This document shows positions 1 to 638 of a stretch of 2,413 nucleotides of DNA, piece after piece (positions within the stretch are counted from its first letter, which is position 1; each line of letters starts with the position of its first letter). Made by a program: the position numbers and the translations under genes. The stretch comes from Escherichia coli (GTDB lineage Bacteria; Pseudomonadota; Gammaproteobacteria; Enterobacterales; Enterobacteriaceae): NCBI RefSeq assembly GCF_003334255.1, contig NZ_QOWU01000134.1. One strand, 5' to 3'. The notes under the pieces are model-generated. The model saw only the letters and a list, made by a program, of their open reading frames with translations. It made no database searches and was not told where the DNA came from.

Positions 1-638
1 GGACCCTGTGGTCCGGGTGGTCCGGCCTCTCCACGTGGGCCGGTGTCACCTTTCGGCCCCGGCGGTCCGCCCGGGTCACCTTTATCGCCCTTCGGTCCCT
101 GTGGACCTGTTTCTCCCCGTTCTCCCTTTGGCCCCGGCTCACCTTTTGGTCCGACCGCCCCCGTTGCCCCGGCTGGTCCCTTTGCCCCTGTGGCACCCTG
201 TGGACCTGTGTCCCCCTTCTCGCCCGCCGGTCCCCGGGCATTCTCTGCCCGTTTCTTCGCTTCCTCTGCACTCGCCGCCGACGCTTCAGCACGCTTCAGG
301 ATTTCCGCTGCCACCGCTTCCAGCTCTGCAAGCGCTTTCGGGTAATACTGCGCCTCATCCTGTTCCATCAGAAATTTATTCAGCGTTCCCGGCTCAGAAT
401 CCGCCTTCACCAGAATGTCACCCACATACGACGGGGCGTACCCTTCCGTGTTCAGCGTCACCCGGTACCACCCCGGCTCCACATCAAAACTGTAACTGCC
501 GGTTTCCTCCGGCTGCCCCTGCGCCACCGTGGTGACTATCACTGTCTCTGTGGTGCGTCGCGCTTTCAGCTCTATGGTGCATCCCGGCACCGGCTTCCCG
601 GTGCCGTCCTTCAGCACGCCCGATATTCTGACTGTCAT
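1..638 (-). CDS. stf: Side tail fibre protein (lambda Stf-like), N-terminal 212 codons; CDS continues past the window start
   Basis: Minus-strand ATG at 638..636, preceded by GGAG (648..645) with a 6-nt spacer. My codon-by-codon translation is open to position 1 with no stop: [28 protein letters not shown]... This matches, from memory, the lambda Stf N-terminus ([26 protein letters not shown]...). An Ala/Glu-rich helical segment follows, then Gly-X-Y repeats. The ORF is absent from the supplied track only because it has no stop inside the window. Confidence 0.85.
3..233 (-). repeat. Collagen-like Gly-X-Y repeat tract inside stf ([18 protein letters not shown] ...), continuing beyond the window
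   Basis: Translation of the minus strand puts Gly at every third codon, with codon first bases at 233, 224, ... 71 (19 triplets). One extra residue follows (codon 62..60), then at least 6 more triplets (Gly codons at 59, 50, 41, 32, 23, 14, 5). The DNA is visibly GC-rich with recurring GGnCCn. The antisense strand gives Pro-rich pseudo-ORFs. Confidence 0.85.

Follow-up and report, generated by a model that had tools for sequence, protein, structure and literature searches.

The side tail fibres of a temperate phage help to determine the bacteria to which it adsorbs. The locus studied here raises the question of whether a repetitive, GC-rich stretch in such a fibre gene acts as a site of length variation and of exchange between prophages. 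The window, that is, the whole stretch of Escherichia coli DNA that was analysed (2,413 nt), is 99.8% identical to GenBank AF151091, which carries J, lom, and orf-401 of prophage P-EibA from E. coli ECOR-9. Its positions 1-700 are 99.6% identical to a prophage of strain CP55_Sichuan (hereafter L001). All genes of the window lie on the minus strand, and their features are collected in Table 1. The side tail fibre gene starts with an ATG at 636-638 and runs off the window at base 1, so that 212 residues are encoded inside it. Two plus-strand ORFs, 8..535 and 43..345, were rejected: they mirror, on the antisense strand, the collagen frame, which is GC-rich and free of stops, and the Pfam, PHROG, and PDB matches sit on the minus-strand frame.

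Table 1. Features of the 2,413-nt window, with the strand and the basis of each assignment.
Feature	Position	Strand	Basis or remark
J, tail tip host-specificity protein, C-terminal part	1457..2413	-	ORF, phrog_2148/phrog_31, annotation; cut by the window edge
Terminator-like hairpin after J	1419-1438		
lom (Ail/Lom outer-membrane beta-barrel)	790..1389	-	ORF, phrog_108 (E=5.5e-94), RefSeq annotation in L001
Terminator-like hairpin and T run after lom	657..686	-	
GGGAG, Shine-Dalgarno-like, 6 nt upstream of the fibre ATG	645..649	-	Read from the sequence
PfN, prophage tail fibre N-terminal domain, residues 1-135	234..638	-	PF08400, phrog_366, PDB 9e7m
Col1, collagen-like Gly-X-Y tract, residues 136-212	1..233	-	Translation, Gly spacing; cut by the window edge
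Col1a, 19 unbroken triplets, residues 136-192	63..233	-	
Interruption G-D-P-G-G-P-P-G, one surplus Gly, residues 187-194	57..80	-	Register shift
Col1b start, residues 193-212, module-specific part	1..62	-	
Perfect tandem 9-mer, two copies	8..25	-	TRF, DNA and protein alignments

The N-terminal part of the protein was readily assigned. PF08400 matched residues 1-134 with its full model covered (E=2e-42), the fibre matched phrog_366, 'tail fiber protein' (E=5e-124), and residues 1-91 matched chain Ta of PDB 9e7m, 'Tail fiber protein' (E=3e-29). PfN ends in a short helical stretch rich in Ala, Glu, and Lys directly ahead of the collagen. The full protein of L001 has 473 residues, comprising PfN (1-135), Col1 (136-253), Pf2 (260-301), Col2 (312-401), and a C-terminal domain. 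Pfam Collagen (PF01391) was found in it at residues 135-190 and 191-249 (E=3e-8 to 2e-7), and Pf2 (PF03406) lies at residues 260-301 between the two Col regions both in L001 and in a second relative, L003. The top PDB sequence matches are animal collagen chains, and BclA (PDB 1wck) gave a weak sequence match to residues 176-245.

Of the EPclC-type architecture, PfN-Col-Pf2-Col-variable C-terminus, the window covers PfN and 77 residues at the start of Col1; the relatives complete it. The gene order in close relatives is J, lom, fibre, DUF4376/Tfa-like, and YadA-like/Eib. The fibre gene thus lies downstream of J and lom, and an assembly or chaperone gene follows in the relatives, the N-terminus of the DUF4376 protein matching phrog_136, tail fiber assembly protein. 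No Cin/Gin/Min invertase or diversity-generating retroelement genes are annotated in the 6 kb that flank the fibre gene in L001, L002, and L003 or at the complete-genome loci. Triple-helix and rod formation have been demonstrated for the paralogue EPclA by CD and electron microscopy, with a rise of 2.9 Å per residue (PMC3368898). As judged from sequence, window 1-233 most probably encodes the first collagen-like, triple-helical shaft segment of a trimeric side tail fibre, a lambda Stf/orf-401 analogue from a lambdoid prophage of P-EibA-like type.

In the minus-strand translation, residues 136 to 212, the last of them at the window edge, have Gly in every third position, and this region corresponds exactly to window 233..1. 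The tract consists of 19 strict Gly-X-Y triplets (residues 136-192), one extra Gly (GDPG-GPPG), and 6 further strict triplets (residues 194-211). At the DNA level, GGNCC occurs 13 times in 1-233 and twice in the other 2180 bases, compared with 3.2 +/- 1.8 times in mononucleotide shuffles of the tract (maximum 10 in 2000). The spacings of this motif are all multiples of 9, with the 3-base phase shift at the extra Gly as the sole exception. Self-identity of the tract at lags 9, 18, and 27 is 0.46, 0.52, and 0.50, respectively, against about 0.23-0.30 at other lags and 0.29-0.32 at the same three lags in the adjacent coding DNA. The G+C content is 70.4% in the tract, 59.5% at 234-638, and 51.8% in the remaining window. 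The near-periodic 9-bp GGnCCnnnn repeat of the original prediction is therefore real and beyond chance, and it does encode collagen, on the minus strand, as both the Gly spacing and PF01391 show.

The accompanying claim of many short identical stretches in register holds weakly. Exact direct repeats of 8 nt or longer number 14 in the tract, roughly double the expectation when codons are resampled for the same protein (p about 0.01), but just 4 have lags divisible by 9. The longest exact repeat measures 14 nt in the window tract and 15 nt across the whole gene. Tandem Repeats Finder (TRF) reported only two repeats. One is a perfect 9-mer in 2.0 copies at 8-25, which reads GTGGTCCGG on the plus strand and CCGGACCAC on the coding one (Gly-Pro-Pro / Gly-Pro-Gln); the other, at 178-218, is a loose 18-mer with 2.3 copies and 73% matching. 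Neither TRF nor the repeat search revealed a hypermutable VNTR or contingency array in the window, and the tract is periodic coding DNA rather than a true tandem array. By contrast, L020- and L063-type alleles have collagen built from a regular unit of about 15 residues, and their total collagen tracts differ in length (62 versus 42 triplets among L020-type alleles; 57, 47, and 42 among L063-type alleles). Chi (GCTGGTGG) is absent from both strands of the window and of the 12.7-kb L001 locus. Two marks of a homologous-recombination hotspot were sought, Chi and direct repeats inside the tract that reach 23-34 bp or more, and neither was found.

Length variation was assessed in 80 IMG/VR loci that code for a related N-terminal domain, in 19 loci of complete E. 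coli genomes, and in four phage-collection records (PhiR5_1, PhiR12_5, and PhiR12_3 as complete genomes, P-EibA as a partial record). The RefSeq label 'complete genome' was taken at face value. Many of the IMG/VR loci come from drafts assembled from short reads, where repeats and co-resident prophages can be put together wrongly. The close family was defined by a PfN with 97% or more identity to that of L001. Within it, Col1 most often has 39 triplets; alleles of 32, 34, 35, 36, 40, and 43 triplets also occur, together with one allele of 30 triplets that lacks the interruption. Col1 variants of 32, 34, 36, 40, and 43 triplets are present in complete genomes and phage genomes. Of 38 complete genomes that contain the entire Col1 at no less than 95% identity, 32 have exactly the reference span and 6, from three independent lineages, are shorter. 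Col1 spans 601 bp in four of seven phage-collection records, and 598, 610, and 637 bp in the others. The triplet-number polymorphism expected across related prophages is therefore observed, with Col1 ranging from 30 to 43 triplets.

The underlying events are whole-triplet indels from +9 to -84 bp and a +36 bp cassette, in agreement with the predicted change of tract length. A gain of 9 bp in PhiR5_1, L006/L007, L012, and L017 raises CCGGACCAC from two to three copies at window 8-25. A loss of 27 bp in the SW0716xx genomes occurred at 4-5 nt of microhomology, and a loss of 84 bp in L010 removed the last three Col1a triplets and the interruption. These three events fall inside the window coordinates, and two more begin at the window edge: a loss of 63 bp between copies of GGTCCnGCAGG in L019 and the JE86 genomes, and a net gain of 36 bp in PhiR12_5, in which an internal cassette is replaced between identical flanks, its left edge lying at the window edge. 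L006/L007 also lost 45 bp between 21-nt imperfect repeats and retained the distal repeat version. A separate loss of 45 bp in the complete genome of SCU-104 (L089) was seen at the protein level only. Junctions were read for five of the six simple indels, and all five lie between direct repeats of 4-21 nt.

The events are unevenly distributed along the collagen. Among the close loci, the 40 with the interruption have a Col1a that is free of indels and unchanged save for single-residue substitutions, and Col1a is common to several fibre architectures at 83-100% DNA identity; the one Col1a change found is the 84-bp deletion of L010. Most in-window indels and breakpoints lie in the start of Col1b. 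Col2, outside the window, has between 23 and 39 triplets. Its length takes ten values among 28 genes, and a single C-terminal module is already combined with eight of them. Thus, Col1 is the steadier collagen tract and Col2 is far more variable. In the close family, all indels are in collagen or at its edge.

We also examined where similarity between relatives begins and ends. Similarity to L001 breaks at gene nt 444 (window 195), 576-583 (window 56-63), and 590-599 (window 40-49), all in Col1, and at gene nt 1003-1179 in Col2, outside the window. A further boundary, at gene nt -18 to -28 (window 656-666), follows closely on the lom terminator, and the similarity of many relatives begins there. 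In more distant relatives, similarity also stops within PfN, at gene nt 186 and 329. Megablast against complete E. coli genomes gave 10 distinct gene-internal ends, all of them in collagen, which makes up 44% of the gene (0.44^10, about 3e-4, under a uniform null).

An all-against-all comparison of 101 loci was then made with matches of at least 97% identity and at least 150 bp. Homologous ends were grouped by graph clustering, which was used instead of a 24-mer-context count that inflated the number of collagen sites. Collagen held 69 of the 95 clustered gene-internal ends on 32.5% of the summed gene length (binomial 1e-15; the clustered ends are non-independent events, and normalisation to summed length is crude and favours regions that are diverse across loci). 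Swap-type ends, at which similarity never resumed, were in collagen in 36 of 51 cases (3e-8). The indel-type ends comprised 33 in collagen, 1 in PfN, 4 in other internal non-collagen parts, and 6 in the C-terminal domain. High-identity ends were absent from gene nt 204-501 and from the first 95 nt of the collagen tract, and twelve lay at gene nt 501-631, corresponding to window 8-138. A similarity boundary marks the end of homology and possibly lies away from the crossover; the exchanges themselves may sit in PfN or Pf2. Breakpoints inside the repeat tract had been anticipated and were found, and the contrary pattern, an identical repeat number with breakpoints elsewhere, is absent, as lengths vary and similarity ends concentrate in collagen.

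The swapping of distal receptor-binding modules through the window tract calls for a qualification. Some joints do lie in Col1, but most receptor-module swaps join in Col2, beyond the window, where five C-terminal module types are joined to the same PfN-Col1-Pf2. The Col1 joints involve several kinds of fibre. Genes of the L020/L099 type share PfN-Col1a and the interruption, with up to 98.7% identity over the last 300 nt; beyond gene nt 590-599 they have a different, highly regular collagen of allele-variable length and another C-terminus. The fibre of the JNEC-KY173 prophage (L100) and of PhiR12_3, which belong to a different phage type, has 644-662 residues, and its N-terminal domain is unrelated. 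Between about gene nt 576 and 900, where the query ends, its identity is 99.7%, and through Col2 and the C-terminus it is 93-97% identical to relatives with the same C-terminal module. In L023-type fibres, Col1a-GEPGGP is fused straight to Pf2, and the interruption therefore marks the insertion point of the 64-residue Col1b.

The interruption, G-x-P-G-G-P-x-G, is present in 58 loci and conserved at the protein level across divergent fibres. Its DNA differs between families at synonymous positions, which rules out a linker conserved at the DNA level; the conservation is therefore functional, and the interruption is no DNA recombination signal. Module joints recur at or beside it. At least four architectures are joined at it or within about 25 nt of it, namely Col1a-Pf2 (L023), Col1a with the 64-residue Col1b, Col1a with VNTR-type collagen (L020/L099), and an unrelated anchor with Col1b (L100/PhiR12_3). 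That the interruption is a preferred 'splice point' of tail-fibre evolution, beyond a mere kink, is a speculative and rather improbable idea. If it did reflect a structural rule, such as a register reset nucleating heterologous trimers, it would be a usable design point for chimeric fibres.

Taken together, we put the probability at roughly three in four that the variation is explained by a collagen shaft whose repeats mediate triplet indels and whose collagen lets module joints survive. A Gly-X-Y triplet corresponds to 9 bp, and its biased GGN/CCN codons would create short direct repeats, often in register. Whole-triplet indels would then form between these repeats by replication slippage or microhomology-mediated joining, each triplet altering the rod by about 0.87 nm. 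A Gly-X-Y rod would accept any in-frame joint, and heterologous module junctions would consequently survive preferentially in collagen, especially around the interruption. The exchange of modules might proceed through phage Rad52-like recombinases acting on conserved flanks, a route documented for stf regions (PMC3945230). Such changes could in turn affect fibre length or host range.

Several observations bear on mutation and selection as sources of the enrichment. Selection must have a share in it, because a collagen rod should take any in-frame Gly-X-Y joint. If structural tolerance were the entire cause, collagen DNA would be no more prone to indels or recombination than other DNA, and other junctions would just break the fibre. 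The interruption, conserved as protein despite its synonymous DNA differences, agrees with this, as does the shortness of the DNA repeats (14 nt at most); Col1a points the same way, being equally periodic yet free of indels apart from the 84-bp deletion and of similarity ends in its first 95 nt. However, direct repeats at five of the six simple indels are a mutational rather than a selective signature, and the distal version kept in L006/L007 also speaks against tolerance as the sole cause. In six loci the collagen runs on in a different frame, with five of the frameshifts in or at the collagen tracts, which suggests indel-prone DNA, weakly, as all six are draft assemblies. We consider tolerance by itself unlikely to account for the data. 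Mutation rate and structural tolerance are inseparable on sequence data alone. Repeat-mediated indels combined with the survival of joints in collagen remain our preferred reading, and it has to be set against two further possibilities. One is unequal homologous crossover by RecA or Red/RecT, between in-register repeats or between the tracts of co-resident prophages. Paralogous copies would allow it: 149 genomes together contain 391 places, with a median of 3 and a maximum of 7 in one genome, and one IMG genome has four copies of differing tract length (L005, L006, L007, and L013). In addition, Red-type recombinases have been found experimentally to recombine diverged stf regions (De Paepe 2014, PMC3945230). 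Efficient pairing requires at least 23-27 bp with Red-beta and 31-34 bp with RecA (PMC3945230), and the longest exact repeats of the tract and of the gene are shorter. Moreover, the 27-bp deletion has only 4-5 nt of microhomology, and the stretches that alleles share identically are far longer in the conserved PfN and Pf2 than in collagen. Homologous unequal crossover is thus very unlikely, and slippage or short-homology joining likelier, because the repeats do not exceed 14-15 nt, Chi is lacking, and the junctions measure 4-21 nt. Of the 'slipped or unequal recombination' that had been proposed, the slipped part fits and the unequal part can probably be set aside.

The other possibility is that the variants and mosaics are products of repeat collapse, expansion, or chimeric joining in short-read assemblies. 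Truncations in or near the tract are indeed frequent: protein matches to the N-terminal domain are 76-237 residues long, mostly 'partial', and end (at 126-237) in or near the tract; 8 of 16 truncated IMG/VR genes stop in collagen; and the window's own start falls inside the tract. Yet the variants of -27, -45, and -72 bp recur in RefSeq complete-genome assemblies, as do the breakpoint classes at gene nt 444, 576, 590-599, and 1003-1179. The +9 and +36 bp variants are in complete genomes of plaque-forming phages, and others recur in independent sources, such as the -63 bp variant in L019 and L095. An artefactual origin of the variation is therefore highly improbable in our estimate.

P-EibA-like and Stx-type prophages carry virulence cargo, and YadA-like Eib genes lie just downstream of the fibre region in close relatives. 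Recognising that fibre length and distal modules change mainly through the collagen tracts would help in reading prophage diversity across E. coli strains and would explain the frequent short-read assembly breaks in the fibre gene. The tracts may also point to safe fusion sites for engineered chimeric fibres.

Several known systems resemble this locus. Lambda Stf/Tfa shares with it the position after J and lom, a PfN-type N-terminus, a distal receptor-binding domain with a chaperone, and the exchange of distal modules, whereas lambda Stf has Ala/Ser-rich low-complexity and coiled regions and is not known to contain Gly-X-Y collagen. Tail-fibre mosaicism in lambdoid, P2, Mu, and T-even phages was reportedly described by Haggard-Ljungquist in 1992 and Sandmeier in 1994. 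Some of the classical fibre exchanges are credited to invertase systems, whereas none is annotated at the present loci. The triplet number of Bacillus anthracis BclA is said, by Sylvestre et al. in 2003, to vary between strains and to set the length of the exosporium filament. BclA is likewise a bacterial collagen-like rod, but it is a spore surface protein with more regular, GPT-rich, VNTR-like repeats.

For the antireceptor genes of Streptococcus thermophilus phages, it was suggested that collagen-like repeats act as hotspots of recombination (Desiere, Lucchini and Brussow 1998, as cited in PMC7242381), and according to citing papers such repeats flank the variable antireceptor regions (Duplessis and Moineau 2001; via PMC7242381 and PMC5601072). 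There, too, Gly-X-Y-coding repeats separate domains of a phage host-recognition protein; however, the host is Gram-positive, the protein family is unrelated, and the repeats flank the receptor-binding region rather than forming long shaft segments. In ORF8 of the Guarani/Sputnik virophage, a spontaneous in-frame 81-nt deletion between collagen-like repeats alters the host range (PMC7242381). That tract is a true tandem array of five 27-nt units, in a eukaryotic-associated virus and in a protein that is not a tail fibre.

The closest system is EPclC/ORF-401 of P-EibA from E. coli ECOR-9, which is essentially the same gene, with the same PfN-Col-Pf2-Col-C-terminus and the same interruption in the first Col. 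Ghosh et al. described the E. coli prophage collagen-like proteins EPclA-D (2012, PLoS One 7:e37872; PMC3368898), with ECOR-9 ORF-401 as EPclC, a protein of 479 residues with Col regions of 117 and 75 residues. They found that Col lengths differ by multiples of three, noted the conserved interruption, and ascribed the modularity to recombination between prophages (PMC3368898). The deposited ORF-401 has a 3-bp gap in the tract (GPR-PQG) that is absent from the window and from the other close loci with this stretch. A literature search joining side tail fibre, collagen, recombination, and Stx found no papers. Indel-junction mapping and breakpoint quantification, which are not part of Ghosh et al., are added by the present analysis. 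Current understanding is thus not overturned: the idea of recombination in collagen tracts is right and already in the literature, and what is new is the junction detail and a rough quantification for one gene family.

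Truly regular collagen tracts, built from repeats of about 15 residues (e.g., GPKGDTGDTGPAGPQ), were found in L020-L022, L024, L063-L067 and L099. These alleles differ in total tract length (62 versus 42 triplets in one comparison; 57, 47, and 42 triplets in another). This behaviour is VNTR-like, and it is absent from the window's own tract. Fibre genes of the window type also coexist in a single genome. IMG genome 643348545 carries 4 prophages with such a gene (L005, L006, L007, and L013), whose first collagen-like tract (Col1) has 39, 35, 35, and 39 triplets and whose second tract (Col2) has 38, 34, 34, and 33 triplets, respectively. 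These copies represent paralogous substrates for inter-prophage exchange inside a single cell.

Shared segments extend to the tail fibre of a different phage type, encoded at L100 and L103. This fibre has an unrelated N-terminal domain followed by a long Ala/Glu-rich stretch and a collagen tract of its own. It has in common with the window's fibre family the part of Col1 after the extra-Gly interruption (Col1b), the Pf2 repeat between the 2 tracts, Col2, and the C-terminus. The identity is about 99.7% at nt 576-900, counted from the start codon of the window-type fibre gene, and 93-97% beyond. A 24-residue stretch of this fibre looks like an out-of-register join.

Some apparent differences in the collagen tracts may have a technical origin. 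In the P-EibA prophage sequence deposited in 2000 (AF151091), 3 bp are missing relative to the window at window positions 8-20, corresponding to residues about 206-210 of orf-401. There, G-P-R-P-Q-G replaces the G-P-P-G-P-Q-G of the window and disrupts the Gly-X-Y pattern. Since the remaining close loci with this stretch either match the window or carry one additional GPP, the shortfall probably reflects a compression error made in sequencing GC-rich DNA, not a true allele. Sequencing error may likewise explain the premature stops in L045, L056, L059, L060, L071, and L083, all draft-derived contigs, in which the collagen reading frame resumes in a different frame; 5 of these 6 frameshifts lie within or at collagen tracts. 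Proteins matched by the N-terminal domain (P0001-P0056) are mostly annotated as "partial" and end at 126-237 residues, some of the partial clusters having hundreds of members, and collagen is the end point of 8 of 16 truncated IMG/VR genes. Short-read assemblies evidently break at the collagen tract, probably because co-resident prophages have common sequence as far as the tract and differ after it. Two Pro-rich plus-strand ORFs overlapping the tract (8-535, 175 residues; 43-345, 100 residues) are antisense shadows of a GC-rich frame without stops and were rejected as genes.

Loci and window features discussed in the text
Feature	Locus	Coordinates	Remark
Tail fibre of a different phage type, 644-662 residues	L100 (JNEC-KY173)	2000-3934	
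	L103 (phage PhiR12_3, 62 kb)	1500-3488	
lom terminator hairpin	window	657-686	cassette bound
Hairpin flanking lom	window	1419-1438	cassette bound
YadA-like/Eib adhesin region	L001	2366-3832	
	L003	6184-7362	
	L084, L087-L098		downstream regions

In close relatives, the gene that mostly follows the fibre and DUF4376 chaperone genes encodes a YadA-like/Eib (immunoglobulin-binding) adhesin, a virulence-type cargo carried behind the tail-fibre module. The gene lom is wholly absent from many otherwise near-identical prophages (L085-L087, L091-L094, and L096-L097), in which the fibre gene directly follows J. Similarity to the window restarts in these loci 18-28 nt upstream of the fibre start codon (window about 656-666), immediately downstream of the lom terminator hairpin. 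On these observations, lom behaves as an insertable, moron-like cassette whose edges are the 2 flanking hairpins.
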